A DNA stretch of 64,000 nt from NCBI GenBank assembly GCA_041666505.1, contig JBAYGU010000001.1:477-64476 (forward strand), written 5' to 3'. This DNA is from Candidatus Buchananbacteria bacterium. GTDB taxonomy: Bacteria > Patescibacteriota > Patescibacteriia > 2-01-FULL-39-33. The notes under the pieces were generated by a model, which worked only from the letters and a program-made list of their open reading frames with translations, ran no database searches and was not told where the DNA came from. This document shows, piece after piece, positions 32,365 through 61,342 of this stretch. The translations under genes and the position numbers were made by a program. Each line of letters starts with the position of its first letter. Within the stretch, counting starts at the first letter, position 1.

Positions 32365-32472
32365 GGGGCTGTCCCAAAACTCCGTTTTTGGTGATTTTGC
32401 AAAAAATTTTTAGCTAATTTTAGCTTCTGTTTTTTGAAAAATTCCTGAAAAATCGAGTAATGGGACAACCCC
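32365..32472 (+). mobile_element. 108-bp MITE, copy 1 (TIR GGGGCTGTCCC / GGGACAACCCC), TSD AATT
   Basis: Appears identical (by eye) to the reverse complement of 61235-61342 and is flanked by an AATT direct duplication. Confidence 0.7.
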
Positions 32473-32474
32473 AA

Positions 32475-32795
32475 TTAGCCGATTTTTCTCGCTTTCTTCT
32501 CCGCAATCTCTTTTTCCAGCTTCACCGCCATATCAAAATCATCTTCCTTGCGTATCTTGTCATTCCTTACAAAACCGCAGGTTTCGCAGCGATGGCTGAT
32601 GATCCACTCGTGGCGGCGGTAATACAAATCAACCGGCCGCATCATGCCGCCGCAGACAGCGGAGCGATCGCCCGGATCAACGTCGACATGCTTGGACCAA
32701 AGGCATTTGGGGCAATGATTGGTAAAACCGGTGCCTTTGACCTTGTAGCCGCACTTAGCGCAAGTGAAATCTTCGATATTTTTGATAAAAGCCAT
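32475..32795 (-). CDS. RNHCP-domain zinc-ribbon protein
   Basis: CAKCG...TNHCPKC...CETCG cysteine pattern. Confidence 0.6.
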   Translation of the reverse strand: MAFIKNIEDFTCAKCGYKVKGTGFTNHCPKCLWSKHVDVDPGDRSAVCGGMMRPVDLYYRRHEWIISHRCETCGFVRNDKIRKEDDFDMAVKLEKEIAEKKARKIG

Positions 32796-32805
32796 ATTAT
32801 TATTA

Positions 32806-32843
32806 AACCCCCTCTAACTCCCCCTTTCGTAAAGGTGGAGAAT
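32806..32843. repeat. RPE-like half element abutting the RNHCP start codon
   Basis: AAACCCCCTCTAACTCCCCCTTTCGTAAAGGTGGAG. On the minus strand its G-rich arm (GAGGGGG) sits 9-12 nt upstream of the RNHCP ATG as a Shine-Dalgarno. Confidence 0.6.
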
Positions 32844-33012
32844 AATTGTCTTGACAGTATAGCATATCTTTTGATATAATTTCAATACTAATTAAAAGAA
32901 ACCCGTAAAGACTCGAAAAAACGGGGCTCTGGAATGATTTAGGCCAGATAATAGCTATAAGTCAGGCTATCATCGCGTCCATTCAGGGTTAAAATATGGC
33001 TACAATACGAAT

Positions 33013-34308
33013 ATGATTTTTGGCAACAAAGATTCAATCATGGCAAAACTGCTCGACGAGAAGCAGTATTTTAATTTGCCCAAATTAGGCGACCTCGTCA
33101 AAGGCAAGGTAATTTCCATCGACAACAACGAGATCCACATCGACCTGAGCGGCATCGCTACGGGCGTGGTCCGCGGCAGAGAACGCTACGATGAAGGCGA
33201 CCAATACAAAAACTTGAAAACCGGCGACATAGTAGAAGCAACTGTCTTGGAATTAGAAAACGAAAATGGCGAAGTCGAATTATCATTCCAATATGCCGGC
33301 AAGCAGAAATCCTGGCAGACATTGATCGACTTAATGAAAGCCGGCTCGATCGTGCAAGCGGTTATCACCGAAGCCAATAAGGGCGGCTTGATGGTTAAAC
33401 TCGAAAGCGTTCCCGGCTTCTTGCCGGTATCGCAATTATCTCCGGAACATTATCCTCGCGTACCGGGCGGCGACAAGAATCGCATCTTTGAGATCTTAAA
33501 AACTTACATCGGCAAGAAATTCGACGTCAAAGTATTCGACGTCAATGAAGGCGAAGATAAATTAATCGTCTCGGAAAAAGCAGCTTGGGAAGAGACCCAG
33601 AAAGATGTCATCGGCAAATACAAAATCGGCATGTCCGTTGAGGGCTCAGTTACAGCAGTAACTGACTTCGGCGTCTTCGTCGAATTCGCCGACAAGCTCG
33701 AAGGCTTGATTCATATCTCGGAAATCGCCTGGCAGCGCATCGACAATCCGCATGACTTCGTAAAAGTCGGCGAAAAGATTAAAGCAGAAATCATCGGCAT
33801 CGAGAACTCCAAGATTTTCCTATCAATGAAAAAACTGGAGCATGATCCTTGGGTCGGCATCGAGAAGAAATTCAAGATCGGCGACAAGATTACCGGCGAG
33901 ATCATCAAAGTCAATCCGTTCGGCTTATTCGTCGAATTGGAAAAGAACATCCAGGGCTTGGCGCACGTCTCTCAATTATCAGACAAGGGCCAAGTCAATC
34001 CGGTCGATATCGCCAAGGTCGGCGAGAAAAAGGAATTCTATGTCGTATCTCTCGAACCGAAGAACCATCGCTTGGGACTGAGCTTAACCAAGCCGAAGAC
34101 TAAGGGCGAGCCGAAAACCGAAGCTGCTGAAAAAGCAGAAACTCCAGCTGAAGAAGCGAAGGAAGAAAATAAAGAAGAGAAGAAAAAACCGGCGAAGGAA
34201 AAGAAACCGAAGAAAGAAAAGAAGAGCGAAGAGCCGAAAGAAGAAATCACTTCGGAAAAAATCGCCGAGGAAATTGACGAAACCAAGGATATTCCTCTCT
34301 CAGAATAA
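33013..34308 (+). CDS. rpsA: 30S ribosomal protein S1 (four S1 domains) with Lys/Glu-rich C-terminal tail
   Basis: Repeated S1 OB-fold motifs (G..V.G.V....FG.FV) and a 70-aa KE-rich low-complexity tail. Confidence 0.85.
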   Translation: MIFGNKDSIMAKLLDEKQYFNLPKLGDLVKGKVISIDNNEIHIDLSGIATGVVRGRERYDEGDQYKNLKTGDIVEATVLELENENGEVELSFQYAGKQKSWQTLIDLMKAGSIVQAVITEANKGGLMVKLESVPGFLPVSQLSPEHYPRVPGGDKNRIFEILKTYIGKKFDVKVFDVNEGEDKLIVSEKAAWEETQKDVIGKYKIGMSVEGSVTAVTDFGVFVEFADKLEGLIHISEIAWQRIDNPHDFVKVGEKIKAEIIGIENSKIFLSMKKLEHDPWVGIEKKFKIGDKITGEIIKVNPFGLFVELEKNIQGLAHVSQLSDKGQVNPVDIAKVGEKKEFYVVSLEPKNHRLGLSLTKPKTKGEPKTEAAEKAETPAEEAKEENKEEKKKPAKEKKPKKEKKSEEPKEEITSEKIAEEIDETKDIPLSE

Positions 34309-34334
34309 TCCATCATATATATATACATAAAAAA

Positions 34335-34391
34335 AATCCCTCCGAATTCTATTATCCGCCGAAAGGCGGAGACCGAACGGGGGGATTTTTT
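34335..34391 (+). terminator. rpsA terminator (nested hairpin + T-run)
   Basis: AATCCCTCCG...CGGGGGGATT outer stem, inner CCGCCGAAAGGCGG, then TTTTTT. Confidence 0.55.
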
Positions 34392-34474
34392 ATTGGTTGA
34401 TTTTTTCCGCCAATGTGCTAAGGTGTAATCGCGCACATTAAATTCTATAAGATCATAAAACCTCAAAAAGGAGA

Positions 34475-35482
34475 ATGATAATGAAACTGATAGTCGATCT
34501 GATGGGCGGCGATAATGCGCCGACTGTCGTAATCAAAGGCATAGAGCTGGCTTTAAAGCTGGGATTCGTCCAGCCCGATGAAATTACTATGGTAGGCACG
34601 GATGAAGCACTCGATTCGGCAAGACGGATAAAAAGCTTGAGGCAGTTAGAATATATAATCTGCAAAGACGCAATCGGCATGGGCGAAAAGGTCCCAGTAA
34701 CTACGGTAAAAAGAAAAAAGGATTCCTCAATTGTCGTAGGATTGCATAGACTTCGCGATAATAATTCTGATGGCTTAGTTTCTGCCGGCAACTCAGCGGC
34801 TCTCACCTTCTTAGCGACATTCATGCTGGGGCGAGTTGCGCACGGATTGTTTCCGGCTATTGCCGTTCCGATGCCGAATATTTTCGGACAATGCTTATTG
34901 CTGGATATCGGCGCCAATGCGCACGCTACAGCAAAAAATCTTTTGCAGAATGCTCAAATGGGCGCTATTTATGCCAAGAATTGCATGGGCAAAGAAAATC
35001 CGAAGATTGGCCTAATCAATATTGGCGAAGAGGTAGATAAGGGCAATAAAACTGTCCATGACGCCTATGATTTATTAGTTAAAAGTGGCTTGAATTTTAT
35101 CGGCTTCATCGAAGGCCGGGATATCTTTATGGGTAAAGTCGATGTAGCAATAACAGACGGCTTTACCGGTAATACGATTTTAAAATCTAATGAAGGCCTG
35201 GTTAAACTGCTAGATGGGGCGATTCGCGCAGAATTCAAAAAACATTATTTATCCTACTTCTCTTTCCTAGCATATCCGTTTATTCTACCGATGAAAAAAG
35301 CTTTGAAAAAACGCTTTTTCGATGAGGAAACGGGCGGGGCTATATTATTGGGCGTCAATAAACCGGTAATTTTCGCTCATGGCAATTCACAACCTCTGGC
35401 AATTGCCAATGCTATTAGACAAGCAAAAATCGAAGTTGAGGCCGGAATTGTTAATGAGATAAAGCGGGGAATTAATAATTAA
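34475..35482 (+). CDS. plsX: Phosphate acyltransferase PlsX
   Basis: LMGGDNAP, FTGNTILKSNEG and GVNKPVIFAHGNS motifs. Confidence 0.85.
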   Translation: MIMKLIVDLMGGDNAPTVVIKGIELALKLGFVQPDEITMVGTDEALDSARRIKSLRQLEYIICKDAIGMGEKVPVTTVKRKKDSSIVVGLHRLRDNNSDGLVSAGNSAALTFLATFMLGRVAHGLFPAIAVPMPNIFGQCLLLDIGANAHATAKNLLQNAQMGAIYAKNCMGKENPKIGLINIGEEVDKGNKTVHDAYDLLVKSGLNFIGFIEGRDIFMGKVDVAITDGFTGNTILKSNEGLVKLLDGAIRAEFKKHYLSYFSFLAYPFILPMKKALKKRFFDEETGGAILLGVNKPVIFAHGNSQPLAIANAIRQAKIEVEAGIVNEIKRGINN

Positions 35483-35651
35483 AGCACCTTAAAGTTGAGA
35501 GATCGCCTCTCAACTTTTTTAATTATTCTCACATGCTTGCATAATATCAGATTTTAGTATAGGGTAAGGTCAGTAATAAATAAGAGAGCCCCTTACAATT
35601 GCAATTATTTTAAGCTGCCCTTTAATCCCAACCCCAGAAAAGGAGTGCCTA

Positions 35652-37178
35652 ATGGATGTCTCGCTTAAATTCCTCGGCGGACTGGCAACAACGGAAAATC
35701 TTACCGGTTCCTGCACGGCAATCGAAGTCAAACGTGGCAAGCAAACAACGGTATTTTTGATCGATGCCGGACTAGTTCAGGGCGATAACAAAAACTTCCT
35801 TAGAAACAACAGAAGGATTCTTGAATACGTTGAACCGAAAAGAATCGACTTCGTCATCCTGACGCACAGTCATATTGATCATATCGGCCTATTGCCGCTA
35901 TTAGTCAGCCGAGGCTTCCGAGGCAGAATCGTCTGCACCGAGCAAACGGCCGACCTAATGCCGATCATGCTTGAAGATTCCTACAAAGTTCAAAAAGGCT
36001 TGGCTTGCAGGAACGAGCGACGGAACAAAGCACGCGCTAATGCCGGATCTTTTAAGAAACGTAGTAAGCAAAAAGAGAAAGTAGGAAAAAGTCGAAATTC
36101 GCAGCCGCATCAAAGAGAGCAACTCTTCCAATTTGAAGACGTGCAGAAGACACTTAAACTGATCTATTCGGCCAGCTACGGCAAACAAATAAAACTGGCT
36201 AAAGGTATAACCCTGCAATTCCATCCTTCAGGACATATTTTAGGCGGAGCAATTTGCACCATCGAAACTATCGACCCCCGCAATAAGAACCGTTCTCGAT
36301 TGGCTTTTAGCGGCGATTTGGGCAGACAAGAAGGATTACTCCTTCTACCTCCCGAAAAACTAAATATCCCTGTTGACTATTGGTTTACAGAGTCAACCTA
36401 CGGCGGCAAACAGCACCCTTCAAGAACAGAAGAAATATCCAAGCTATTTGGGCTAATTGCTGAAGCCGAAAAAGAGGGCAAAAGAATCATTATTCCTTCC
36501 TTCGCTTTGCAGCGAACACAAGAACTGATTTATCTGCTTTCAGCAGCTATGGAGCGGAATGAAATACCAAGAATACCTATCAATCTAGATTCACCGATGG
36601 CGATTGCTATCACGGAAGTTTTCGCTAAATATTGGGATTTAGGCGCCTTCAGTAATAAATTCTTACTTGGATTCAATCCATTCAGCGAAAATACCAATCC
36701 GAACCTCAAATTCCACAGGAGCCCCGAAGAATCAGCCGAGCTAATGCGCCAACCAGCCCCGCGAATCATCATTGCCAGCTCTGGTATGTGCGACGCTGGA
36801 AGAATTCGTGACCATCTTCGCGCTAATCTAGGAAGCGAAATGGCAATCATCTGTCTTGTAGGCTATATGGCTCCGACCAGTCTCGGCGCAAAACTGAAGA
36901 AAAAGCCGCTATTCGTACAAATGAATGAAGATAACATTAAAATCCAATCAAAAATTGAACATTTCGAAAGCTTTTCTGCCCACGCAGACAGCGTCGAGCT
37001 AGTCAATTATGCCCAATCAGTATTTAGCGGCAATAAAAGATCCCTGAATATCATTATTCTGCACGGAGAAACCGATAACGGCAAGTCTTTAAAAGACAAA
37101 CTGGAAGAACGGTTTAGAGGTCGCGATGTTGCGATCTTACTGCCGAAACTTGGCGATTCTATGACTTTGCCTCTCTAA
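35652..37178 (+). CDS. MBL-fold beta-CASP ribonuclease (RNase J-like) with a Lys/Arg-rich insert
   Basis: ILTHSHIDHIG (HxHxDH) and ESTYGG beta-CASP motif. Contains a KR-rich ~40-aa insert. Confidence 0.65.
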   Translation: MDVSLKFLGGLATTENLTGSCTAIEVKRGKQTTVFLIDAGLVQGDNKNFLRNNRRILEYVEPKRIDFVILTHSHIDHIGLLPLLVSRGFRGRIVCTEQTADLMPIMLEDSYKVQKGLACRNERRNKARANAGSFKKRSKQKEKVGKSRNSQPHQREQLFQFEDVQKTLKLIYSASYGKQIKLAKGITLQFHPSGHILGGAICTIETIDPRNKNRSRLAFSGDLGRQEGLLLLPPEKLNIPVDYWFTESTYGGKQHPSRTEEISKLFGLIAEAEKEGKRIIIPSFALQRTQELIYLLSAAMERNEIPRIPINLDSPMAIAITEVFAKYWDLGAFSNKFLLGFNPFSENTNPNLKFHRSPEESAELMRQPAPRIIIASSGMCDAGRIRDHLRANLGSEMAIICLVGYMAPTSLGAKLKKKPLFVQMNEDNIKIQSKIEHFESFSAHADSVELVNYAQSVFSGNKRSLNIIILHGETDNGKSLKDKLEERFRGRDVAILLPKLGDSMTLPL

Positions 37179-37188
37179 GAAAAAACAA

Positions 37189-37215
37189 ATCCCAGCCATG
37201 AAGAATGGCTGGGAT
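37189..37215. terminator. Bidirectional terminator between convergent genes
   Basis: ATCCCAGCCAT-gaagaa-ATGGCTGGGAT with flanking A/T runs. Confidence 0.55.
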
Positions 37216-37238
37216 ATTTTAATTCATATTTTGTTTTT

Positions 37239-37508
37239 TTATTCCTTCTTGTCCCAGAAAGCCTCTGCTTCCTCTTCCATTTTCTCTAAGCGAGTGTAAT
37301 AATCGGCGAATTCATTCAAATGGGCCAGAGCGATTTTGCCAGTGGTAAAAGCGCCGTCATTAGTGACATTAGTCTGCGGATCCCTGGTGCCATGTTCTAA
37401 TTCCACATCCATGCCCATACGGAATTGCTCCACATCGAATTTCGTCCAATCGATTCCCAATCTCTCTCCTGTTTCCTTCGCCTCCTCGGCGGAAAATATT
37501 GTCTTCAT
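37239..37508 (-). CDS. Small hypothetical protein (89 aa)
   Basis: Acidic ORF with a 4-nt overlap with the upstream phosphohexomutase gene. Confidence 0.35.
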   Translation of the reverse strand: MKTIFSAEEAKETGERLGIDWTKFDVEQFRMGMDVELEHGTRDPQTNVTNDGAFTTGKIALAHLNEFADYYTRLEKMEEEAEAFWDKKE

Positions 37509-38884
37509 ATTAATTCTAATATTTGTTTTTTAATTTTTTCTAATGTTTCTTTGCTTACTGCTTCGATATTTAATCTGATTACCGGCTCGGTATGCGACGG
37601 CCTGATATTGAAGAACCATAATCTATCCACCGCCGTTACGGATAAACCGTCGATCAGACTGATCTTATCCCGAGGAAATAACTTCTTGATCTCTTGGGAG
37701 ATTTGATCGAATCGAGCGGTCTTAAAATTCAACTCGCCAGAAATTTGATAATTAGATGATATCGGCTTTATCGCCTCGGATAATTTTAATTTATTTTGTT
37801 TTAAATACTTCAAGACTAATAGGACAGAAATTATCGCATCGCCATAGACAAATTGCTTCTTGTTTTTCAAGTTAAAATTATACATGAAGTGGCCGGAATT
37901 CTCGCAGCCGAACAAGAGTTTTTTTTCTGTCATCGTCTTGATAAAATTCGCATAACCGGCGCGATGCACCAATATTTTGCCACCACTATCTCTGATCGCT
38001 TTTTCTATTGCCAGATTGAGGCGGGCATCAGCAACGATTGTCGCGCCTTTCTTCATGGCCAGTATTATCTGCGACATCAGGCAATTGATATGGTACGGCT
38101 CAACGAATCTGCCTTGCTCATCGATAAAAATAGCGCGATCGGCATCACCATCGAATATTACGCCCAAATCAGCTTTCTTCGCTTTGACTTGACTTATTAT
38201 AACCGCTCTATTTTCTTTCAATAACGGATTCGGTCCATGGCCGAATTTCTTATCGCTGGCGCGAAAATTTATCGCCGTAAATTTCAAAGGTAAGGCATCA
38301 AATATCACTTCCGCCAAACGTCCGCCCGATCCGCCAGAAGCATCTAGAATTATATTAAAGTCTTTGATATCACTGGGCTTAATAAAAGATAAAGCGAATT
38401 TCTTATAATCCAAGGCAATAGAAATAAAATCAACTTGCTCGCTTTTCGTTGTAAATTTAATTCCTGACGGAATTTTATTAATTTCCTGGTTAGCAAATTT
38501 TTCCAATATTTTTGATCCGGAATTAAGACCGAATACCCGCCCCTTGCTGTCGCAGAATTTAAAGCCTGTTTCTCCTGTCGGCGAATGCGATGCGGTTACC
38601 ATCACTCCACCCGGAAATTTCTTGGTTCCGACGGCAAAAAATAATTCCGGCGTAGCGCAGACTCCGAGATCGTATATCTTAATTCCGCCCTTTGAGAGTC
38701 CCGCCACCAGCGGCCAGAAAGCCTTCTCTGATTCTTTTCGAGCATCGCGGCCGATGGCTATTTTCTTCGCTTTAATGACTTTAGCAAACGCCAAGCCAAG
38801 AGCATAAGCGGCATTATCGCTGATCTCCTCGGGATATTTCCCTCGTATATCGTATTCTTTAAAAATTGTAGGTGTAATTATCAT
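37505..38884 (-). CDS. Alpha-D-phosphohexomutase (phosphoglucomutase/phosphomannomutase/GlmM family)
   Basis: Active-site loop GVMVTASHSPTGETG. Confidence 0.8.
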   Translation of the reverse strand: MIITPTIFKEYDIRGKYPEEISDNAAYALGLAFAKVIKAKKIAIGRDARKESEKAFWPLVAGLSKGGIKIYDLGVCATPELFFAVGTKKFPGGVMVTASHSPTGETGFKFCDSKGRVFGLNSGSKILEKFANQEINKIPSGIKFTTKSEQVDFISIALDYKKFALSFIKPSDIKDFNIILDASGGSGGRLAEVIFDALPLKFTAINFRASDKKFGHGPNPLLKENRAVIISQVKAKKADLGVIFDGDADRAIFIDEQGRFVEPYHINCLMSQIILAMKKGATIVADARLNLAIEKAIRDSGGKILVHRAGYANFIKTMTEKKLLFGCENSGHFMYNFNLKNKKQFVYGDAIISVLLVLKYLKQNKLKLSEAIKPISSNYQISGELNFKTARFDQISQEIKKLFPRDKISLIDGLSVTAVDRLWFFNIRPSHTEPVIRLNIEAVSKETLEKIKKQILELI

Positions 38885-38896
38885 AACCTTATGTTA

Positions 38897-39679
38897 TCAT
38901 TTTTTAACCGCGATGGCTAACAGATTATCGCCGGTCAAGATGGAAACCGATCCCCGGCTTTTGCTGGCATAACTCAAATAATCAATTGAGAACCCGGCTG
39001 ACGTCAGGAGATTTTTCATCTCTCTTTTCGTAAATGAATGTACGTATCTGACGTGCCACTCGCTTTGGCGCAAGTTGGCCTTCCAGGGCACGAAAGCGTC
39101 AGAAATATTGTAGACTCCGAGATTGAATTTTTCAACCAGATTGAACAGATATGGATAGTAGCGGAAATATTTGCGGCCATTAACATTCCACAAATTCCAA
39201 TTACTGATCACTAAGCGTCCGCCCGGCTTTAAGGCCTGATATAAATCTTTCAATATTTTTAATCTTAATGCGCGCGTAGGAATATGATGCAAGGCGGCAA
39301 TCATTAATTCGAGATCAAATTGATTCGAGGCCAAATGCAAATCAACCGCATCCGCAACTTCGAACTTGAAATCAGACTTATTCTTATACCGGTTTTGAGC
39401 GATTTCTATCAGCTCTTGGGAATTATCTAAGCCGAGATACTCGACTCCGGAATTATCAAAAAGTTGAGCCATGCGTCCGTTGCCGCAGCCAAGGTCTAAA
39501 ACATTGTCTCCCCTTTTTACATACTTGGCGAAATCTCCGAATCCCTCCCACCATTTGCCGCGGGTATCAGAAAAATCAGCTGCAATTTCATTATAAATCT
39601 TCGGCGTTTCCTCTAATATGCGATTGACATTTTGTCGTTTCATAAGTATAATAAGGTTTAAACTATGCCAGAAATCCAT
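38897..39679 (-). CDS. Class I SAM-dependent methyltransferase
   Basis: VLDLGCGNGRMAQ motif I. Confidence 0.7.
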   Translation of the reverse strand: MDFWHSLNLIILMKRQNVNRILEETPKIYNEIAADFSDTRGKWWEGFGDFAKYVKRGDNVLDLGCGNGRMAQLFDNSGVEYLGLDNSQELIEIAQNRYKNKSDFKFEVADAVDLHLASNQFDLELMIAALHHIPTRALRLKILKDLYQALKPGGRLVISNWNLWNVNGRKYFRYYPYLFNLVEKFNLGVYNISDAFVPWKANLRQSEWHVRYVHSFTKREMKNLLTSAGFSIDYLSYASKSRGSVSILTGDNLLAIAVKK

Positions 39680-41338
39680 TCACAAATCATTCTAGACATC
39701 ATCAAAGGCAAGCCGCAAAGCGATGCTGATCTTTTTAATATTGTCAGAAAATCCACCGCTGGCCTCAAAATGGCTCCGCCGCCCAAGGCCGTACTGTTAA
39801 AAGCTTACCATAAACTGGCAAAAAGTGGAAAAATAAAATCGAACACAAATATTGCTCAATTACTAACTAAGCGAGCCGTGCGTACTCTTTCCGGCGTAGC
39901 AGTTATTTCTGTCTTAACCAAACCGACAACTTGCCCCGGAAACTGCCTTTTCTGCCCGACCGAGAAAAATATGCCTAAATCATACCTTTCCAACGAACCG
40001 GCGGTCATGCGGGCTATTTTAAACGATTTTGACCCCTTCAGACAGGTCGAAATGCGCCTTAAAGCGCTTAAAGCCAATGGCCACTCGGTAGACAAGATCG
40101 AGCTGATCGTCATGGGCGGCACCTGGAGCTACCATACACCAAAATACCAATCCTGGTTCATCAAACGTTGCTTCGAAGCAGTCAACGGCAAAGAAGCCAA
40201 AACTTTGGCGGAAGCACAGAAAAAAAATGAATCAAGTAAGCACCGCGTCATCGGCCTAACTCTAGAAACCCGACCAGATTATATCGACGAAGAAGAAGTG
40301 AAGCGACTAAGAAATCTTGGCTGCACCCGGGTAGAATTAGGCATCCAGCATATTGACGACAAGATATTGAGATTGAATCGCCGCGGCCACAACACCAAAC
40401 AAAGTATCAATGCTATCAAGTTACTCAAGAATGCCGGTTTTAAAATCAATCTTCATCTGATGCCGAATTTATACGGCTCGACGCCAGCCAAAGATTTAGC
40501 AATGTTTAAAAAAATCTATACTGACGGCAATTACATGCCGGATATGGTCAAAATCTACCCCTGTGTCGTCAATGAGCATGCCGATTTATACAAATTATAT
40601 AAGCAGAAAAAATATAAGCCCTACACGCAAAAGCAATTGACTGATTTGATAGTCAAAATAAAAAAAATCACTCCGCCCTGGGTGCGCATCGCCCGATTGA
40701 TCCGCGATATTCCCGAGGAATCGATTGTCGCCGGCAACAAGACGACTAATCTGCGGCAGCTAATAGCGCTCACCGCATCTAAGGATGGCTGGAGCTGCAA
40801 GTGCATCAGATGCAGAGAAGTCGGAAGATCACATAACATGGAACATGGAACATTAAATGCAAAATTAGTCAGTAGAAAATATCAAGCAAATGGCGGTACG
40901 GAATATTTTTTAAGTTATGAATCGCCCGACAAAAAAATTCTTTATGCCTTCTTGAGGCTTCGGATCAAACCCCCTCTAACTCCCCCTTTCGTAAAGGGGG
41001 AGAAAAACTTCCTAACATCAATTCAGCAAGGGAACGATTCCTCCCCTTTACGAAAGGGGAGGCTAGGAGGGGTTTATCTGCCTGAACTAAATGGAGCAGC
41101 CTTGATCCGTGAGCTGCATACTTATGGTCAGGCGACGGAAATCGGCTCTAAGGGCAAAGTCCAGCACCTCGGACTGGGACAAAGACTACTTTCGGAAGCA
41201 GAAAAAATCACCCAGCAAAATAACTTGAATAAAATTGCTGTCATTTCCGGCATCGGCGTCCGCAGTTATTACAAGAAATTCGGCTATAAACTCGAAGGGA
41301 CTTATATGGTGAAAAATTTAACAAAAAAGACAAAATAA
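39665..41338 (+). CDS. elp3: Elp3-like radical-SAM / GNAT acetyltransferase (tRNA wobble-uridine modification family)
   Basis: CPGNCLFCP radical-SAM cysteine triad and a C-terminal GNAT (QHLGLGQRLL). Carries a ~37-aa repeat-encoded insert. Confidence 0.8.
   Translation: MPEIHSQIILDIIKGKPQSDADLFNIVRKSTAGLKMAPPPKAVLLKAYHKLAKSGKIKSNTNIAQLLTKRAVRTLSGVAVISVLTKPTTCPGNCLFCPTEKNMPKSYLSNEPAVMRAILNDFDPFRQVEMRLKALKANGHSVDKIELIVMGGTWSYHTPKYQSWFIKRCFEAVNGKEAKTLAEAQKKNESSKHRVIGLTLETRPDYIDEEEVKRLRNLGCTRVELGIQHIDDKILRLNRRGHNTKQSINAIKLLKNAGFKINLHLMPNLYGSTPAKDLAMFKKIYTDGNYMPDMVKIYPCVVNEHADLYKLYKQKKYKPYTQKQLTDLIVKIKKITPPWVRIARLIRDIPEESIVAGNKTTNLRQLIALTASKDGWSCKCIRCREVGRSHNMEHGTLNAKLVSRKYQANGGTEYFLSYESPDKKILYAFLRLRIKPPLTPPFVKGEKNFLTSIQQGNDSSPLRKGRLGGVYLPELNGAALIRELHTYGQATEIGSKGKVQHLGLGQRLLSEAEKITQQNNLNKIAVISGIGVRSYYKKFGYKLEGTYMVKNLTKKTK
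40967..41075. mobile_element. Full-length ~109-bp palindromic mini-element (RPE-like) inserted in-frame in the elp3 GNAT domain
   Basis: Terminal inverted repeats AAACCCCCTCTAAC / GCTAGGAGGGGTTT and two internal stems CTCCCCCTTTCGTAAAGGGGGAG / CCTCCCCTTTACGAAAGGGGAGG. The ORF stays open across it. Confidence 0.7.
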
Positions 41339-41384
41339 GCTATACTGTTGCTAGTTAATTAGAACTTAACTGAAAGGAGAATTT

Positions 41385-41849: not shown

Positions 41850-41867
41850 TATAAACAGCACAAAAAA

Positions 41868-41899
41868 ATCCCGTTCGCCGTGGCGAATCGGGATTTTTT
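41868..41899. terminator. Bidirectional terminator between the Nudix gene and hup
   Basis: ATCCCGTTCGCC-gtgg-CGAATCGGGAT with A7/T6 flanks. Confidence 0.55.
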
Positions 41900-41907
41900 A
41901 ATGCAGA

Positions 41908-50037: not shown

Positions 50038-50110
50038 TTCATCAGCTTAACTTATTATCGGTATTCTGTCAAACTAATAATTATGATATAATTTACTTAT
50101 TAGATATTTT

Positions 50111-50224
50111 CCCTCCCCTTTTTTCAAAGGGGAGGCTAGGAGGGGTTTTGTTGGAATTAATTAAACCCCCTTTCGATGCTCCTTATGGTCGCATCCGAAT
50201 CCCCCTTTGAAAAAGGTGGAGAAT
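50111..50224. repeat. Two tandem partial RPE-like units in the intergenic region upstream of the PGI/PMI gene
   Basis: CCTCCCCTTTTTTCAAAGGGGAGGCTAGGAGGGGTTTT (50111-50149), followed by AAACCCCC...CCCCCTTTGAAAAAGGTGGAGAATAAT (50164-50224). Confidence 0.6.
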
Positions 50225-50247
50225 AATGCAACTCAATAATTAAATCT

Positions 50248-52248: not shown

Positions 52249-52307
52249 AACGTAATTCTTATTCCAAGGGGCTCGATAAATCGAAGCCCCTATGGAATAA
52301 AATATTA

Positions 52308-52694: not shown

Positions 52695-52839
52695 GTTTTC
52701 ACCCCCTTTCTCTGTCCAGTGCCCGCCGACCGCCGGTCGCCAATGGCGGAAGCGAGTACGGATAGCAGAGGAAATTGAGACGGCAATTCGGCCATCCCTT
52801 AATATATGAATTAATTATACAGTAAATTGAGCGACATTC

Positions 52840-53190
52840 CTAGCCAGGCGCTTGCAAGACATTCCTTAAGAAGAAAGTGATTACAGCGTAGGCAGTGAAT
52901 ATTATGAATAAGCCCAAAACCGCGTATTTCATCATCTCTTTGCCTTTGTCCACATTCTTCGGATTGACACCCGCCAGCAGATACAGCAATCCGCCATATA
53001 TGAATGCTATGAGAGCGAGAACGCCGGAAATTCCTAATGCCGCTTGAATGAATCTATTGGCTAGAAGCGGAATTGGATTACCAGATTCCAAGCCCAAGGG
53101 ATCGCCTATTTGAACGGCCGCTGCTGCAATTGAGGGCAGGATCAATGAGCCTAAAGCTAATATGGAAAATATTATTTTTTTCATAAACAT
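52840..53190 (-). CDS. VirB2/TrbC-like small membrane protein, paralog 4
   Basis: IYGGLLYLLAGVNPKNVDKGKEMM core. Confidence 0.5.
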   Translation of the reverse strand: MFMKKIIFSILALGSLILPSIAAAAVQIGDPLGLESGNPIPLLANRFIQAALGISGVLALIAFIYGGLLYLLAGVNPKNVDKGKEMMKYAVLGLFIIFTAYAVITFFLRNVLQAPG

Positions 53191-53211
53191 TACAATTTTT
53201 AATTAAGCAAA

Positions 53212-54003: not shown

Positions 54004-54017
54004 AAGGGATAGATAAA

Positions 54018-55421
54018 TTAATTAGATGGAGAAACAATCGTCTGAGCGATTTTCTGAGTCACAATCTGAATTACATCATTAATGCCCTGCGGATCAACTA
54101 CTAATAGGAATCTTTCGGCCATTTCCTTGAAAGCCTGTTCGGCGGCGAGAGCGTCCATGCCATAATACCAAGTCTTGGCAGTCAATGTCTGAGTCGAAGC
54201 TGCATGAAGATCTTCATTTTCCTGCTGCCCGGTTATCAGAGCCTTCTGGGCTGTCGGAGCATTAGTCACCGCCAGATACTTGGTGATTTCTTCCGGCTGA
54301 TTCAAGAAAAGCAGGAAGTTCCAAGCCTCATTCGTATATTTAGATTTTTTGGAAACTGATTCCAGCCAATAATTGGCATAATTGACGGTCGGATTACCCG
54401 GAATCTGCGGGATCGGCGCAATGCCGAAATTCACGCGCGAACTGGCGCGAATCTGGGCTAAGTGATAATTATAGCCGAAAAAGAATCCGACCTTGCCCGC
54501 CATGAAGGCCTGCAAAGAATTGGGCATGGTATTGTTCCAGGAGTAGACGCTTTTTACCGGTGAGGCGAAATCGGCATAGAACTGCAAAGCAGTCTGTCCA
54601 GGATTTACCCGTTTGCCGTCTTTCGTAATGCCAGAGAAGAAGGTGGGCATGTTCCTGACATCGCTCATGATGGCGCCGCTTTGCATCATTAAGACCGAGA
54701 TTATATCGAAGCTTCTTTCTACATTGAATCCCGTTCCCAAGGCGGTTCCGGATTGGATGATATTATTCTCGAACTCGAATTTAGTCGCCTTAATGACTGC
54801 TTCTTGAAAGGCGCTCCATGTTGTCGGAATCTGCGTGATGCCGGACTGGTTAGTTATATCCTTGTTATAGAACATGACCAAGCTATCAAGCGACAGCGGC
54901 AAACCGTAAACTTGATCGCCGATTACGGCATCATTGTAAATGGTATCCGCATATTTATCCTTTATCTGCCTTAAGGTGGGCGCCGTTTCATTCCTGATTT
55001 CTATGACTTTTTCCTTATTCAAATTGAAGAAACTTCCCTTCTCGATGATATAGCCCATCTTGATCTGAGCCGGCATAGGCTGGATCTTTGCCTGGTATTT
55101 CCTTAGCCAGCTTTCCGGTATGGAAAAAATATCCGGCCCGCGATCTTCGGCCAAAGCGTTGATAAGCTCCGTCTCATATTCCTCATAGCGGAACTTGCGG
55201 TAATTTATGGTGATATTCGGGTGTACTGTTTGATAATCCTTGATGACCTGATCGAACGCATCCTGATCATCCCAGACGCGCCAATAATTAAGCGTAATCG
55301 GCTTGACCGCCGCCTGCTGTTCCGCCGTCGTCAGCTTGCAGCCGAAGCCGGACACAGTCAAAAAAACTGCCGCCAGAAAGAGGTAGAGAATTTTATTTAA
55401 TGTCTTCTTCGTCATTGGCAT
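54018..55421 (-). CDS. Extracellular solute-binding protein (ABC-type, family 1), lipoprotein-like
   Basis: SBP_bac_1-like profile with a signal/lipobox-like LTVSGFGC. Start is taken at the MPMTKK Met rather than the track's longer N-terminus. Confidence 0.65.
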   Translation of the reverse strand: MPMTKKTLNKILYLFLAAVFLTVSGFGCKLTTAEQQAAVKPITLNYWRVWDDQDAFDQVIKDYQTVHPNITINYRKFRYEEYETELINALAEDRGPDIFSIPESWLRKYQAKIQPMPAQIKMGYIIEKGSFFNLNKEKVIEIRNETAPTLRQIKDKYADTIYNDAVIGDQVYGLPLSLDSLVMFYNKDITNQSGITQIPTTWSAFQEAVIKATKFEFENNIIQSGTALGTGFNVERSFDIISVLMMQSGAIMSDVRNMPTFFSGITKDGKRVNPGQTALQFYADFASPVKSVYSWNNTMPNSLQAFMAGKVGFFFGYNYHLAQIRASSRVNFGIAPIPQIPGNPTVNYANYWLESVSKKSKYTNEAWNFLLFLNQPEEITKYLAVTNAPTAQKALITGQQENEDLHAASTQTLTAKTWYYGMDALAAEQAFKEMAERFLLVVDPQGINDVIQIVTQKIAQTIVSPSN

Positions 55422-55458
55422 AATTTGCAATCTCAATATACATTTATTATAACACATT

Positions 55459-58400
55459 TTATGGAACTGCAATAGCATTATCCACTTCGCCAGCTGGCGG
55501 TACTTCAAAAATATCTTTAGTATTAATTGCGGTAAATCTTTTTTTCAATCCTTCAAAGGCCGTTTCAGCTGCCCTATTTTGAAAGGTGCGTCTGTCTTCA
55601 TTAAAATAAGACGCCTCCACTAACTTCTTAAGTTGTTCCGTTTTTTTCGAGTCAAAATGGATATCATTAATTTCTTCCGTAGTCAGGCCGCTGAGCCATT
55701 CCCTGGTCTTTTTTTTCTGATCATCCCGAAGCTTTCCTTTATTAAGCAGGATTTCCTTTACTAATTCTTCCAGTGTCTGGCGCTTGGCTTTTGTTTCAGA
55801 AACTTCAACTTTTGGTTCTTCCACTGCTGTCTCAGACTTTATTTCAGTCACGCTTCTTTCACCTTCCTGAAAAGTAATTCCCGGGATTTCCTTTTCCACT
55901 ATCGGCAAGCCTATCGGAACATTGCCTGCTTTTTTTTGTCTCAAATCTTCCAATGCGATACGGCCTCCAGTTTCACCTGCTCCGCCTTTCGGATTATTTG
56001 CGCCAACGGCTTCCGATTCCATATCTTTAGTCCGCGGTCCTTCTAATGGCCGCCTAGGATCGAAGGGCAAAACTGGCGGCACATCCCAATCCTTGCCGAT
56101 CGGCAGCTCAGGGTTTTTCATATCGAATGAGTAGCTGAATTTATTCGTTACTGATCCCGACATAACTCCCGCATCGATATTCTTACCGGATATCGTCGCC
56201 AAAACATGGCTATTGCCGGCATCATCAATAATCCTCAATTCGCCGAAACGGAAAGGTATATTGCCATCCTGCATGCTGTTTTTGGCGCCGAATAATTTAG
56301 AAATGGAATCCCCCAGATTAATCTTGCCTGAGCCGTCAGTCGAATCAGTCAGATAGCTTAAGCCCGCTTTATTGTCTCCCTCTGTCGGGAATATCGCCAC
56401 TTTAAGATGTTTGGCCAGTTCCCCTTTGCTCGCCCATTCAGCCAATTGATCCCTTAATCCGGCCAATTTCGTATCCACGCTGCCGTCAGGATTAGTGCCG
56501 AATTCTTTGACCGCGTCCTTGGCGTTTGCCGATAAATTCTCCAATATTCTAGAAGCATCGACCACGACATTGCCGGACGCATCCTTATTCATATAGAACA
56601 TCTGCTGCTTGCCCTCATGCTCGATCAAGCGATTGAAGAATGATGACATTTTCTTGCCCGGTTCATCATGCCAATCAGCCCGAGCATGCTTAGCCAGCCC
56701 TTCCTGCAGCTTGCTGGCCACGCTGACATTTTCCGTTACTTGCGTGTGAGTCTCATTAGGTATTATTCCGCTTTCTTTTAATGACTTCAATAATTCCGGA
56801 TCGATTCGACCAGTCTTGGGATCGAGTTCAATAGGACTTTTTATAATTGAATTTCCTTTGCTATCCAATAACTGGCCATCTCTGAATGCCAGATGCTGCA
56901 CGGCGCCTTCGCCGGCCGTTCCGTGATCGCCTTTGAACCAATGATACATATGTTCCAGGGCGCTTTCCGCTTTAGACGTTCTGCCCAATACATGCTCGCT
57001 GAATTGCCCAGTTATCCATTGGCCGATCGCACCCGCAGCCAAGCCAGTTCCTGCGCCTATTAAAAAACTCTTTTTTCTTTCCCAGCGTTTATAAGCCTCG
57101 AAATTATTATCGTTTTGTTCGATATTGCCGGTTAAATCAGCTTTGATTTCATTTATCAGCGCTTGCATTTCATGACCATCGGGCGACAGATTGAATTTTT
57201 TTCTGATATCTTTTAACGCCACTTTCAAATCCTTCATAGCGATCAGCTTTGTCTTATGCGCTTCGCCTTCCGCCTCAGAAACGCCGATCAAGTCGACTGA
57301 TTTTTCTTTTTCCAACTCAATGCGCGCCATCACATCAGCGATGGCTTTTTTATCCTCATCGGTCAAATTCTCCCTGGCCATGATTTCCGCCAGGCTCGCC
57401 TGCAATTGCTCGGCGCGCTTAAGGTCATAATTAAATTCCCTGATTTTATTCGTTCTTTTGGCATCATCATCAACTTCAATGCCCAAAGTCGAACGACGCA
57501 AATCCATTCCTCGATCATACTGCAGATCGCGAGAACGGCGCATGGCAGTAAACGTTCCGCCCATGCCGGCACCGATTAAAAGCGGCGCCAGCCACGGCGC
57601 TACTCCGGCAACAGTAACTAGCCCGCCCATTGCCGCCAATCTGGCCGTACCCTTGCCAATCACAGCGCCCGCGATTCCGCCGACTACGCCATAAGTCACA
57701 GGATTAGCTATTACTTTATTGAGTATGGGAATATTTTCTGTCGCGTCGACGAATTTTTCATACCACTTCAAAACCGGCTTCGGCTTGGTTTCATACAAGT
57801 CTTTCTGTTTCAATCCTAACTGAATATCCAAAGCCATCTCCGCCTTGACCTGCATTTCTATATTTGCCGCCTGTTCCGGACCAAATTCCTTTCCTAATTC
57901 TTTCACCTGGCTCTCCACTTGTTTCCGATAACCTTCAGCCAAAGCGAATAAATTATTGGCATACATCAAGCCTTCGGCTTCATCCTCCCGGCCGGTTGCG
58001 CCGAACTTCTTATTCTTGTTTTTCAATAGGGCGATAACCCGCACCTCTACGGTCTGATCGAACTCAGCGCGAGTCATATCGGAAGTGGCATAATCGACGA
58101 ATAATTGACCGACCACCAAATTGATTTCGTCATCTTGCACTAAGTCGCCTTTTTCATCAGCATCCATAACCTCATGAGTGAACTCTTCCAAAACAGCGTC
58201 CAATATCTCATATGATTTGTCAATATTTTCTGATTTGATTCCGCTGGTCAGCATCCTGGCTTCTATTTCCGCCATTAGATTCTTATTGTCCTTGATCGCC
58301 GCCAAAGCCTCTTTGTAATATTTCATCAAATAGCCCTTTTCGCCCAAGCGGACTGCAGCCCGCGTCAAAAAATTAGATTGAGATTTATCCAGCATGCTTC

Positions 58401-60045
58401 TGAGTTTCTGCTCCGCTTCACGCCAAGCCATGGCTTTGACAATTTCCGAGATATCAACGATGAAAATCTTTTCTCGCGATTTTTTAATGACTTCTAACTC
58501 TCCGGCGTTTTCCGGCTTGTGTTCGATCTGCAACTGTTCGACAATCGGATCAACAATCACCTTTTCTTTCGGAACAACTTCCAACTCGCTGGCGTTTCTT
58601 GAATCATGAGTAATTTGCAAAGGCGGTTTTATAACTCTTTTTTTAGGCGGTATGACTTCCAACTCGCCAGTACCCGGCTTGTGTTCAATCTGTAATGGTT
58701 CGTCATATGTGATCTCCAATGGCTTAATTTTCGGTTTTTCTTCCGGTTTCTTATCTTCCTGCAAAACAATCTCTCGACGTTTGCTCATCGCCTCCATAGC
58801 CAGCTGGTAATCCTTGTCAGCATCTCCGGTCGAACGCATATCCAACGACGCCAATACAGCTTCTAATTCCGTCCGCCAATGCTGTTCATCTCCCTTCATG
58901 TCCGGACGAATTTCAAAATATCCCCTGCTATTGGCTTGCAAGGTCTCAATTATACCGTTAATTTTCTTTAATTCCTCATCCAGCTTCTTCAATTTATCCC
59001 GATTAACCTCGCCTTCGCCGTCTTGAGCCGCTTTTTCCGTTACCTGCCTCAATGCTTCACCGGTCTGCAAAGGAAAATTATCAGAATCGACCGCATAATC
59101 AACGCCATCCTGATTAAGCGCCGCACTATTGCCCGCCTCCTTATCGGCCTTGGCCCAAGTCTGCCTCGTGGCATCTACCCATTGCCTTACCCTGCCCCTA
59201 ATAGCGCTTTTATTCGTTGATAAGCCATTATAAACTTGGTGCCAAGCGATTTTTTCTTGATGTTCCTGATCCGTCCCCTCCTTATCGCGTCCGATCTTTT
59301 CCAAAGTCTGTTCATACTGCTTCTTCAGATCTTTCGCCAATCTCGCCATGCTTTCCAAATCCTTTTTACGTTCTGCCAGCTTTCCGGCTTCCGTCTCCTG
59401 GCTCTTGGCAATAAGCTTCAGCTCCTCAATCAAGTCATCAACCGGAATGCCTTCGCGCTGGGAGCGATCATCCACTTTGACCTCAAAAGTCAGGTCAGCG
59501 CTGTCTTGAGCTTTATTTTTTGCATTCTCAACGCTTTTTATGATCCATTTTATGCGGTCGGATTTCTGCGCTTCGGGCAGATTCTTCAATATTTCCAGTC
59601 CTTCATCTACCTGGCTGATTATTTTTCTTCTAATCTCAATATTATTCGCAACTTTTTCCGGAGCCTGTTCGCTTACGTTAACAGTAGTTTCCGATTTCGA
59701 AGAAACTTCAATTTTTGCCTCGAACTCGGCTTTTAAGGCAGCGGCTTCGCGCTGGATCGCCTCAATCTCTTGCATGTCTTTTTGAAGATCCAAATCAGAT
59801 TCCTTGATTCCCAGCTCCCTTAATTCGGCCAATATCCTTTTTAAATCACCCTCAGTTTCCGCATTGATCTTATCAGCGCTTTCTTCCATTTTCTGTTTGA
59901 GCTTATCAAGAATTTCGCCCAAAGACTCCCGCCTGGCCAAGGCAACGTCTTCTGGATTTTTTATTTCTTCGATTTTTGCATCTTTAGACTCATCCATATT
60001 TATCCTATTTAATTTTTGACAGGATCCTTCTAATTTTTTCGTCAT
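55459..60045 (-). CDS. Giant (1528 aa) coiled-coil membrane protein with central glycine-zipper TM hairpin and internal ~25-aa repeats
   Basis: Uninterrupted 4.6-kb ORF. The N-terminal ~780 aa are charged and coiled-coil. A TM block (GVVGGIAGAVIGKG...LLIGAGMGGTF) follows. Three PLQIEHKPGTGELEVIPPKK-like repeats are present. Confidence 0.6.
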   Translation of the reverse strand: MTKKLEGSCQKLNRINMDESKDAKIEEIKNPEDVALARRESLGEILDKLKQKMEESADKINAETEGDLKRILAELRELGIKESDLDLQKDMQEIEAIQREAAALKAEFEAKIEVSSKSETTVNVSEQAPEKVANNIEIRRKIISQVDEGLEILKNLPEAQKSDRIKWIIKSVENAKNKAQDSADLTFEVKVDDRSQREGIPVDDLIEELKLIAKSQETEAGKLAERKKDLESMARLAKDLKKQYEQTLEKIGRDKEGTDQEHQEKIAWHQVYNGLSTNKSAIRGRVRQWVDATRQTWAKADKEAGNSAALNQDGVDYAVDSDNFPLQTGEALRQVTEKAAQDGEGEVNRDKLKKLDEELKKINGIIETLQANSRGYFEIRPDMKGDEQHWRTELEAVLASLDMRSTGDADKDYQLAMEAMSKRREIVLQEDKKPEEKPKIKPLEITYDEPLQIEHKPGTGELEVIPPKKRVIKPPLQITHDSRNASELEVVPKEKVIVDPIVEQLQIEHKPENAGELEVIKKSREKIFIVDISEIVKAMAWREAEQKLRSMLDKSQSNFLTRAAVRLGEKGYLMKYYKEALAAIKDNKNLMAEIEARMLTSGIKSENIDKSYEILDAVLEEFTHEVMDADEKGDLVQDDEINLVVGQLFVDYATSDMTRAEFDQTVEVRVIALLKNKNKKFGATGREDEAEGLMYANNLFALAEGYRKQVESQVKELGKEFGPEQAANIEMQVKAEMALDIQLGLKQKDLYETKPKPVLKWYEKFVDATENIPILNKVIANPVTYGVVGGIAGAVIGKGTARLAAMGGLVTVAGVAPWLAPLLIGAGMGGTFTAMRRSRDLQYDRGMDLRRSTLGIEVDDDAKRTNKIREFNYDLKRAEQLQASLAEIMARENLTDEDKKAIADVMARIELEKEKSVDLIGVSEAEGEAHKTKLIAMKDLKVALKDIRKKFNLSPDGHEMQALINEIKADLTGNIEQNDNNFEAYKRWERKKSFLIGAGTGLAAGAIGQWITGQFSEHVLGRTSKAESALEHMYHWFKGDHGTAGEGAVQHLAFRDGQLLDSKGNSIIKSPIELDPKTGRIDPELLKSLKESGIIPNETHTQVTENVSVASKLQEGLAKHARADWHDEPGKKMSSFFNRLIEHEGKQQMFYMNKDASGNVVVDASRILENLSANAKDAVKEFGTNPDGSVDTKLAGLRDQLAEWASKGELAKHLKVAIFPTEGDNKAGLSYLTDSTDGSGKINLGDSISKLFGAKNSMQDGNIPFRFGELRIIDDAGNSHVLATISGKNIDAGVMSGSVTNKFSYSFDMKNPELPIGKDWDVPPVLPFDPRRPLEGPRTKDMESEAVGANNPKGGAGETGGRIALEDLRQKKAGNVPIGLPIVEKEIPGITFQEGERSVTEIKSETAVEEPKVEVSETKAKRQTLEELVKEILLNKGKLRDDQKKKTREWLSGLTTEEINDIHFDSKKTEQLKKLVEASYFNEDRRTFQNRAAETAFEGLKKRFTAINTKDIFEVPPAGEVDNAIAVP

Positions 60046-60187
60046 CGATCTTTCTCAAGACTCGGCTGACTGCCGCATCCTTTTCTTTTTTTAATGCCAG
60101 CAATCTGCTTTCAAACTCAAGATAAATCGCCTCCAGTTCCTCTGGAGTCTTGATTGATGCAGCAGCATTATTTCTTTTGGCCGGCAT
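60005..60187 (-). CDS. Small basic hypothetical protein (60 aa)
   Basis: Sits immediately upstream of the giant gene in the same operon. Confidence 0.3.
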   Translation of the reverse strand: MPAKRNNAAASIKTPEELEAIYLEFESRLLALKKEKDAAVSRVLRKIDDEKIRRILSKIK

Positions 60188-60196
60188 ATAAGAAAA

Positions 60197-60514
60197 TTAA
60201 GCGTTCAAATATACAGCGCGGAATTCCAACATTGCCGCCGCCGTTATTTCTTCGATATTCTTCACTCGTCCCTTTAAAAACATCTGGAATTCCGGCTGGG
60301 AATAATCAACCGAGCCTTCCAGCATGCGATTCAGCTCTTGCGCCGTCTCCTCATCCAACTCCTTAGTTATGGATGAAAAAATAAAAGCCTGCAGGCGCGG
60401 ATACATACTGTTTACCATCGCCTCTTTTAATTCCGGAGACAAGTTATCGAACTTTTTTTCCTCGATTACTTTTTCCAAAAAAGCCCGTATTTCTTCTGGG
60501 ATAATTGTCGACAT
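60197..60514 (-). CDS. Hypothetical protein (105 aa), first gene of the cluster operon
   Basis: Acidic helical protein preceded by an AT-rich divergent promoter region. Confidence 0.35.
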   Translation of the reverse strand: MSTIIPEEIRAFLEKVIEEKKFDNLSPELKEAMVNSMYPRLQAFIFSSITKELDEETAQELNRMLEGSVDYSQPEFQMFLKGRVKNIEEITAAAMLEFRAVYLNA

Positions 60515-60686
60515 ATTTTATCGGCGCTAAAAATTTAATTGGCTTGTTCTATAAATATATTATACAACTTTTTTTAAAAATAATAAAATACCACTTATAT
60601 GCAATCAGACATATGATGATAAAAAAAATATTATTGCAAATTTGACGTTTGACGATAACGCTGATAAAAGCTAATATTATCTTAGA

Positions 60687-61208
60687 ATGATTGGAAATTA
60701 CCCTATGCCCACAGCCAAGAAAATCGGAGTCAAATTGGTCAAACAGACGCCTGGCTATTGCGGTCCGGCCAGCCTGAAGATGGTCTTAGATTATTTCGGC
60801 GTCAAAAAAAGCCTGGAAGCCTTGGCTAAAATGTCGAGCACGCCTGCTGCCGGAAAAACTGCCGGCGCCTCAGGCAAGAATCTTCTGGCGGCGGCCAAAA
60901 AATTAGGCTTTTCCGGCTCCATGAAAGACTGGGCGAACTTCAGTGATATCCGCAAATACGTCGAGAAGCAAGGCATCCCGGTCATCATTAGCTGGTTTTC
61001 AGGCTACGAGAGCCACTTTTCCGTCGTCGTTAAGATCGATAAAGATAATATTTATTTCCTGGACCCGGAATACTGCGCGCTCAGGAAAATGAGCCTGAAG
61101 AGATTCGAGAAGATCTGGTTCGAATTTGAAGGCGGACTTGGCCAGTCAACGCCCAAGCTCATCGTCAGGCGAATCATCGTCATCCAGCCGAAAAAATCTT
61201 CCAAATAA
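60687..61208 (+). CDS. Standalone peptidase C39-like (papain-fold) domain protein
   Basis: QTPGYCGPASLKMVLDYFG (catalytic Cys context) and a downstream His (ESHFSVVV). Confidence 0.55.
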   Translation: MIGNYPMPTAKKIGVKLVKQTPGYCGPASLKMVLDYFGVKKSLEALAKMSSTPAAGKTAGASGKNLLAAAKKLGFSGSMKDWANFSDIRKYVEKQGIPVIISWFSGYESHFSVVVKIDKDNIYFLDPEYCALRKMSLKRFEKIWFEFEGGLGQSTPKLIVRRIIVIQPKKSSK

Positions 61209-61234
61209 ATTTCATAAAAAACAGTCTGCCGTGG

Positions 61235-61342
61235 GGGGTTGTCCCATTACTCGATTTTTCAGGAATTTTTCAAAAAACAGAAGCTAAAATTAGCTAAAAA
61301 TTTTTTGCAAAATCACCAAAAACGGAGTTTTGGGACAGCCCC
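61235..61342 (-). mobile_element. 108-bp MITE, copy 2 (inverted), TSD GTGG, inserted in the loop of a pre-existing terminator
   Basis: Reverse complement appears identical (by eye) to 32365-32472. Flanked by GTGG direct repeats inside the palindromic CAGTCTGCC...GGCGGACTG + T7 terminator. Confidence 0.7.

Follow-up and report, generated by a model that had tools for sequence, protein, structure and literature searches.

What kind of element is represented by the two copies of a 108-bp sequence that lie in inverted orientation, 28.8 kb apart, in the genome of a Candidatus Buchananbacteria bacterium (Patescibacteriota; GenBank assembly GCA_041666505.1, contig JBAYGU010000001.1, positions 477 to 64,476 of the forward strand)? 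This 64,000-nucleotide stretch is hereafter called the window, and positions are counted from its first letter. The two sequences are very probably copies of a transposable element of the miniature inverted-repeat type (MITE), i.e. a 108-bp non-autonomous transposon that uses the terminal inverted repeats (TIRs) of an IS1182-family clade of insertion sequences (ISs) widespread in Patescibacteria, is moved in trans by the DDE transposase of that clade, and inserts into the loops of terminator hairpins.

A repeat search and direct string comparison showed that copy 1 (32365..32472, plus strand) is identical to the reverse complement of copy 2 (61235..61342, minus strand) at 108 of 108 nucleotides, as the first-pass annotation had judged by eye, and that the two arms are 28,762 nt apart. 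Copy 1 is flanked on both sides by AATT (32361..32364 and 32473..32476) and copy 2 by GTGG (61231..61234 and 61343..61346; CCAC on the minus strand). These target-site duplications (TSDs), read from the sequence, are genuine and 4 bp long, with no match at the fifth base in either copy. The left end of copy 1, GGGGCTGTCCCAAAACTC, starts at 32365 and the right end reads ...GAGTAATGGGACAACCCC; the TIRs, GGGGCTGTCCC and GGGGTTGTCCC, differ by one mismatch, and across the first 18 nt the two ends match at 15 positions. The element is a near-perfect palindrome over nearly its full length and folds as a single hairpin (RNA minimum free energies of −42.2 and −43.6 kcal/mol, z = −7.2 and −8.8). When up to three mismatches were allowed, the four MITE ends were the sole occurrences of the 18-nt terminal pattern in the window (0.06 expected). 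Thus, the element is short (108 bp, compared to the usual limit of about 300 bp for MITEs), contains no transposase open reading frame (ORF), has TIRs and a TSD of fixed length, occurs in several copies at unrelated loci, and shares its ends with autonomous ISs, in agreement with its original designation as a MITE. Copy 1 is present at the same place in an independent JGI assembly (3300037810, Ga0376277_0009498; 99.99% identity to the window across 9.8 kb) and is therefore not an assembly artefact. Copy 2 was seen in the source contig only (ENA ERZ27249449 k141_725008), look-ups of the C39 and AttH-like proteins having yielded neither a second assembly nor an unoccupied version of this site.

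To place the ends of the element, the GGGGYTGTCCCAWWACTC end pattern was scanned over 185,579 genomes, one per species (the Buchananbacteria genome is not among these representatives), and 111 loci were obtained. About 30 of the 111 are exact ends of 1.52–1.60 kb elements in metagenome-assembled genomes (MAGs) of Patescibacteria (Falkowbacteria, Uhrbacteria, Paceibacterota and others) and in the complete genome of Minisyncoccus archaeiphilus. Most of the 111 matches were due to chance, located inside coding regions (Alphaproteobacteria, Methylobacterium and others), and were dropped after extension analysis; the four matches in a scan of viral contigs were all chance coding matches as well. 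Many of the end matches of full-length ISs coincide with the edges of contigs, a pattern to be expected when an IS is present in multiple copies. The first 18 nt of the MITE are identical (18/18) to the termini of these 1.5–1.6 kb transposase-bearing ISs, and the single ORF of the latter (453–477 aa) scores 310–346 bits against the NCBIfam model NF033551 (IS1182 family transposase, cut-off 270 bits), with 310 bits for L019, 346 for L017 and 328 for L064, all from genomes other than that of the MITE host. The ORFs carry the Pfam domains DUF772 and DDE_Tnp_1_6 and fall far under the cut-offs of the IS5, IS1380, IS982 and ISNCY models; the Minisyncoccus protein is named by PGAP 'IS1182-like element ISMac1 family transposase'. 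Because its 18-nt ends are those of ISs bearing an IS1182 transposase, the 108-bp element is a MITE with IS1182-type ends. Full-length ISs with both flanks available are bordered by 4-bp TSDs as well (ATGA, ATTA, TTAA, TTTA and CTTA); the contigs L019, L140 and L146, with flanks that do not match and that may reflect chimeric assembly or recombination between copies, were left out of this evidence.

Several further observations concern this IS clade and its ends. In M. archaeiphilus (NZ_AP038758; loci L017, L090 and L100), the clade is multicopy in a cultivated, archaeon-parasitic host and belongs to a cluster of 54 member sequences. A transposase from a Nanoarchaeota MAG is 55% identical, and the ISMac prefix presumably refers to Methanosarcina acetivorans; this hints at exchange of the clade between bacteria of the candidate phyla radiation (CPR), DPANN archaea and methanogens. 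At L138, L141–L143, L145 and L147, an IS1182 element of the Falkowbacteria type is nested in an IS3-family element (rve/HTH_21 ORFs), with the TSD TTAA located within a hairpin, and several contigs of such nested copies have mismatched flanks, suggestive of inter-copy recombination or chimeric assembly. MITE-like elements of 119 bp with the same 18-nt left end were found in Treponema MAGs (L018, 3457–3575; L058, 2458–2576; L091, 3521), and one of 161 bp in Uhrbacteria (L036), all outside the subfamilies described below. With this left end present also in Spirochaetota MAGs, the TIR type extends beyond Patescibacteria.

Metagenomes were scanned for pairs of such ends with a spacing of 60–90 nt; the 16 loci obtained, together with the window and L025, amount to 19 independent MITE insertions, comprising a 108-bp and a 98-bp subfamily. 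After removal of the element and one TSD copy, most of the sites become a hairpin that consists of an A-run, a GC-rich stem, a loop, the second stem arm and a T-run, with the TSD as the loop. The TSD is exactly 4 bp at 14 of the 19 sites and 3–5 bp at the remaining ones. A stem of at least 7 pairs that begins no more than 3 nt from the TSD is present at 15/19 MITE sites compared to 91 of 1,020 random positions, and an A-run on the left combined with a T-run on the right at 16/19. The A-run signature was likewise detected at the flanks of full-length IS ends (20/26 vs. 110/1034 controls, p = 2 × 10−14). Thus, both the MITEs and the full-length ISs almost always sit in the loop of an intrinsic terminator. 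Two Minisyncoccus insertions (L017 and L090) lie outside obvious terminators, so that the rule is a strong preference rather than an absolute requirement. Retention of both stem arms, with duplication of the loop, was observed at 17–18 of the 19 sites, unlike the replacement of the stem-loop described for IS1272, where the target hairpin is partly deleted and no TSD is formed.

The two copies in the window conform to this pattern. Copy 2 lies inside the loop of AAAAAACAGTCTGCC-GTGG-CGGACTGTTTTTTT, as the first-pass annotation had proposed, and the reconstructed empty site is a hairpin with the TSD as tetraloop (−17.8 kcal/mol, z = −4.2). This bidirectional terminator, with its left arm (A-run and CAGTCTGCC) at 61216..61230 and its right arm (CGGACTG and T-run) at 61347..61360, separates the convergent genes for a C39-like peptidase (60687..61208, plus strand) and a CrtC/AttH lipocalin-like protein (61385..62482, minus strand). 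Copy 1, too, is located in a terminator loop, namely that of the RNHCP-domain gene (32475..32795, minus strand). The terminator directly follows this gene and overlaps its stop codon: the A-run and 5' arm (AUCGG) occupy 32477..32487 and the 3' arm (CCGGU) and U-run, split off by the insertion, 32348..32360 (both minus strand), with an intact ortholog, AAAAATCGGCTAAGGCCGGTTTTTTT, in the relative L130. On the minus strand, the right TSD overlaps the TAA stop (32477–32475), which remains intact. The promoter-like TTGACA-17-TAAGAT (32317..32345, minus strand) of the amidohydrolase gene downstream of copy 1 (31394..32263, minus strand) was untouched by the insertion, and its TTGACA aligns in the relatives L130 and L131.

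Comparison with these relatives also bears on whether the site of copy 1 existed before the insertion. The local gene order in L130, rpsA(−) RNHCP(+) amidohydrolase(+) DFP flavoprotein, is that of the window, and at the orthologous position L130 reads AAAAATCGGCTAAGGCCGGTTTTTTTGA whereas the window reads AAAAATCGGCTAATT, 108 bp, AATTGACCGGTTTTTTTGA. In L131, a plain terminator without the element is followed by the conserved promoter. Thus, an intact, element-free terminator occupies the site of copy 1 in both relatives; for copy 2, the empty site is the reconstructed perfect hairpin. The comparison against empty sites in related genomes, named in the first-pass annotation as a way to refute its reading, thus turned out in favour of that reading for copy 1, albeit with a distant relative whose loop is different.

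The same comparison is informative with respect to the proposal, made in the first-pass annotation, that the inverted pair represents recombination arms and that the 28.8-kb interval, which carries rpsA, plsX, clpP, rny and a VirB2-like cluster, is an invertible segment. Two perfectly identical inverted repeats of 108 bp could serve as a substrate for RecA; however, a length of 108 bp is small for homologous recombination to be efficient. Across copy 1, the independent JGI contig and the window are colinear, and the gene order at this junction is unchanged in MITE-free L130. Furthermore, the GC skew has a negative sign within the interval as well as beyond it and does not flip at 32.4 or 61.3 kb. 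Together, colinearity, synteny and the unflipped skew indicate that the present orientation is ancestral. Members of the family (19 sites) normally occur one to a terminator, which makes the inverted pairing of the two copies incidental. An alternative junction was not seen in the assemblies compared across copy 1, although rare, low-level inversion by homologous recombination may occur. We therefore consider an invertible segment very improbable and have dropped this proposal as unsupported.

Given that the MITE is a near-perfect palindrome, a transcript across an occupied site would consist of the first terminator arm, the hairpin of the MITE, the second arm and the U-run. In predicted structures, the terminator arms and the MITE form one continuous hairpin of about 60 bp, with the U-run adjoining it for transcription in either direction (−61 to −68 kcal/mol, z = −8 to −9) and, in copy 1, the palindromic TSD AATT pairs with its twin. 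Terminators that hold the element are thus predicted to keep their geometry and to survive, which would explain the tolerance of such sites.

These folds raise the possibility that the element serves mainly as a structured RNA or as a terminator module with a function of its own (similar to REP/BIME or part of a 3' untranslated region), which is kept by selection and is not an active transposon. Such a role would fit the constant location at gene 3' ends, the composite fold that retains terminator geometry, and the long hairpin that is preserved in both the 108- and the 98-bp subfamily, which differ in both partners of 3 pairs. However, the hairpin receives little support from covariation (10 sequences, with a term of −0.87 kcal/mol), and no Rfam family matched at the gathering threshold anywhere in the window (0 matches); ARAGORN found no tRNA or tmRNA in the whole window either. 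The 4-bp TSDs at 14/19 sites with unrelated flanks, the empty orthologous site, the ends identical to those of transposase-bearing ISs and the bursts of identical copies also argue against such a module, which we regard as unlikely. Domestication after insertion is compatible with the MITE interpretation.

The bursts are apparent from copies outside the window. The search for more copies suggested in the first-pass annotation yielded the 19 distinct family sites and, among them, a third copy identical at 108/108 positions, in another metagenome (L120, Ga0172379_10001051), with the TSD TTCG and located in the terminator after an ftsZ-like gene. Both window copies and the L120 copy share a private G>A substitution in the right repeat (GGGACAACCCC) that has no counterpart in any other member of the family. 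In the sister 98-bp subfamily, 7 identical copies were found at 7 sites in another sample. The shared private substitution points to descent of the three identical copies from one mutated master copy that kept transposing. Recent mobilisation, suggested earlier from the identity of the two window copies, is thus supported by an identical copy at a different site, and sequence comparison argues for recent transposition.

The mechanism that we propose for this MITE begins with a DDE transposase of the IS1182 clade that would be encoded outside the window and would move the element in trans. A search of the 64-kb window with five IS1182 transposases as queries (tblastn) gave nothing significant, in agreement with the earlier prediction that the transposase is encoded elsewhere. 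The transposase would select hairpin-forming DNA, in practice intrinsic terminators, and we infer that it recognises structure rather than sequence. At the hairpin tip, the two element ends would be joined at positions 4 nt apart, which would copy the loop to give the TSD and leave both stem arms in place. With a palindromic MITE within the terminator, termination, the neighbouring genes and their promoters are predicted to be unaffected, and terminator loops would act as a 'safe haven' that lets the MITE multiply in a small, gene-dense genome. A bolder version of this scheme, which we advance tentatively and with somewhat less than even credence, holds that the clade, across Patescibacteria, identifies its targets as extruded structures (terminator hairpins or cruciforms), cuts symmetrically at both stem-loop junctions and duplicates only the 4-nt loop, and that its fully palindromic MITEs rebuild terminators that are longer yet functional. 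If so, transposons could proliferate in a nearly neutral manner in the ~1-Mb, gene-dense, recombination-poor genomes of CPR bacteria, possibly as a source of 'super-terminators'.

Several observations weigh against the interpretation as an IS1182-mobilised, terminator-targeting MITE. The host hairpin of copy 1 is weak (5 bp, −5.6 kcal/mol, z = −0.5). The loop of the orthologous terminator in L130 is TAAG compared to CTAATTGA in the window and L130 is distant (63% amino acid identity; 63–64% for the amidohydrolase among the nearest relatives), so that the exact TSD of copy 1 is not checkable base by base in this comparison. The two Minisyncoccus insertions outside obvious terminators depart from the target rule, and the retained terminator geometry is a prediction from folding only. 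A profile search for a partner transposase recovered 542 relatives, none of them attributable to the MAG or the samples of the MITE, and among 120 listed homologues, none is labelled Buchananbacteria; a transposase with matching TIRs, which the first-pass annotation had recommended looking for, was found in other genomes, where it is IS1182-type, but the search revealed no autonomous partner in the MITE's own genome, which is absent from the species representatives scanned. Apart from the 18-nt ends, the subterminal sequence of the MITE matches no recovered full-length IS; the element may share just the TIRs with these ISs and may not be a simple deletion derivative.

Several DDE families make 4-bp duplications, and no partner was found in the MITE's genome; the mobiliser could thus belong to another family with such TSDs (IS5, IS701 or IS1380 type) and not to IS1182. 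Yet all transposase-bearing elements recovered with such 18-nt termini score above the IS1182 equivalog cut-off, remain far under the IS5, IS1380, IS982 and ISNCY cut-offs, and share the terminator-loop target and the 4-bp TSD; a mobiliser outside IS1182 accordingly appears highly improbable, the least probable of the alternatives considered here.

Classical MITEs, such as RUP of Streptococcus pneumoniae, Correia/NEMIS of Neisseria and ERIC, are ~100–150 bp long, intergenic and mobilised in trans, with TIRs, a TSD and a long hairpin; they are tied to partners of the IS630 or IS30 type and to TA targets, whereas the 108-bp MITE is linked to IS1182 and specific for terminator loops. IS1397 and ISKpn1 insert into the loops of REP/PU extragenic palindromes and provide an analogy only, being IS3-family elements rather than MITEs and having a REP target that is defined by its sequence. 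The closest counterparts are the ISMac1-like ISs of the IS1182 clade (e.g. the multicopy 1,551-bp element of M. archaeiphilus NZ_AP038758), which have the same 18/18 end GGGGCTGTCCCAAAACTC, a 4-bp TSD and the preference for an A-run, stem and loop. Compared to these, the MITE has no ORF within its 108 bp, carries 3 differences among the 18 positions of the right TIR, and shows no subterminal relationship to the full-length ISs, which have small hairpins there. The CPR transposases are ~28–31% identical to annotated IS1182-family transposases in plasmids.

Among characterised members of the IS1182 family, ISPse1 of Paracoccus seriniphilus, which was captured functionally, is 1,653 bp long with 16/16 inverted repeats and a 4-bp direct repeat (PMC3281130, Table 2), similar in TSD and size class to the ISs analysed here; unlike the MITE, ISPse1 is autonomous and proteobacterial, and its target structure is not described in that report. 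IS1272 targets terminator or inverted-repeat hairpins by structure, without a primary-sequence consensus, and deletes or replaces the target stem-loop, leaving no TSD (PMC4923244; PMC5678879); for palindrome targeting by further members of the IS1182 family, both papers refer to Siguier 2015. Thus, IS1272 and TnSha1 of staphylococci share hairpin targets with the MITE family, whereas the MITE insertions keep both stem arms and duplicate the 4-nt loop. A 'loop-only duplication' was drawn by Wan et al. as the hypothetical pathway c of their model (PMC5678879), and the MITE insertions look like natural examples of this pathway.

Hairpin targeting by IS1182 members (IS1272) is already published, and the MITE is a real but fairly ordinary find. 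A literature search of incomplete coverage turned up no description of MITEs derived from IS1182 or of MITEs hosted by Patescibacteria. The repeat now has a concrete identity as an IS1182-type MITE, and the ultra-small genomes of Patescibacteria are seen to host active-looking MITE families. At the 19 MITE and ~30 IS natural insertion sites, the terminator loop is the target and becomes the TSD, which complements the stem-loop replacement by IS1272. This target rule is testable in vitro and helps in the annotation of repeats and contig breaks in CPR MAGs.

The window contains other repeats. An unrelated 108-nt, AT-rich palindromic repeat of TACGAAT/TACTAAT heptamers (13981–14088) lies just upstream of an ORF similar to threonyl-tRNA synthetase (ATG at 14104). 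The metagenome locus L127 has a 90% identical copy with unrelated flanks (4882–4989), as well as partial copies at ~5584–5634 and ~5997–6043, and also carries a 106/108 copy of the MITE. The heptamer repeat may be another mobile or REP-like element, or else an operator array. A GC-rich repeat of ~46 nt (AAACCCCCTCTAACTCCCCCTTTCGTAAAGGGGGAG...) with its own hairpin is present as two solo arms (8447–8492 and 32802–32847) and two inverted pairs ~20–35 nt apart (40964–41007 with 41030–41076, and 50103–50148 with 50183–50226), and looks like a further small REP/MITE-like family. A 50-nt direct repeat (25109–25158 and 30051–30100; 88% identical) ends in the terminator-like AAAAAAACCGCCGAATCGCTTCGGCGGC. 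A few kb from copy 1, a gene for an AbiEii-family toxin (PF08843) is adjacent to an AbiEi_4-like gene (28083–29372 and neighbours), forming an abortive-infection/toxin-antitoxin pair.

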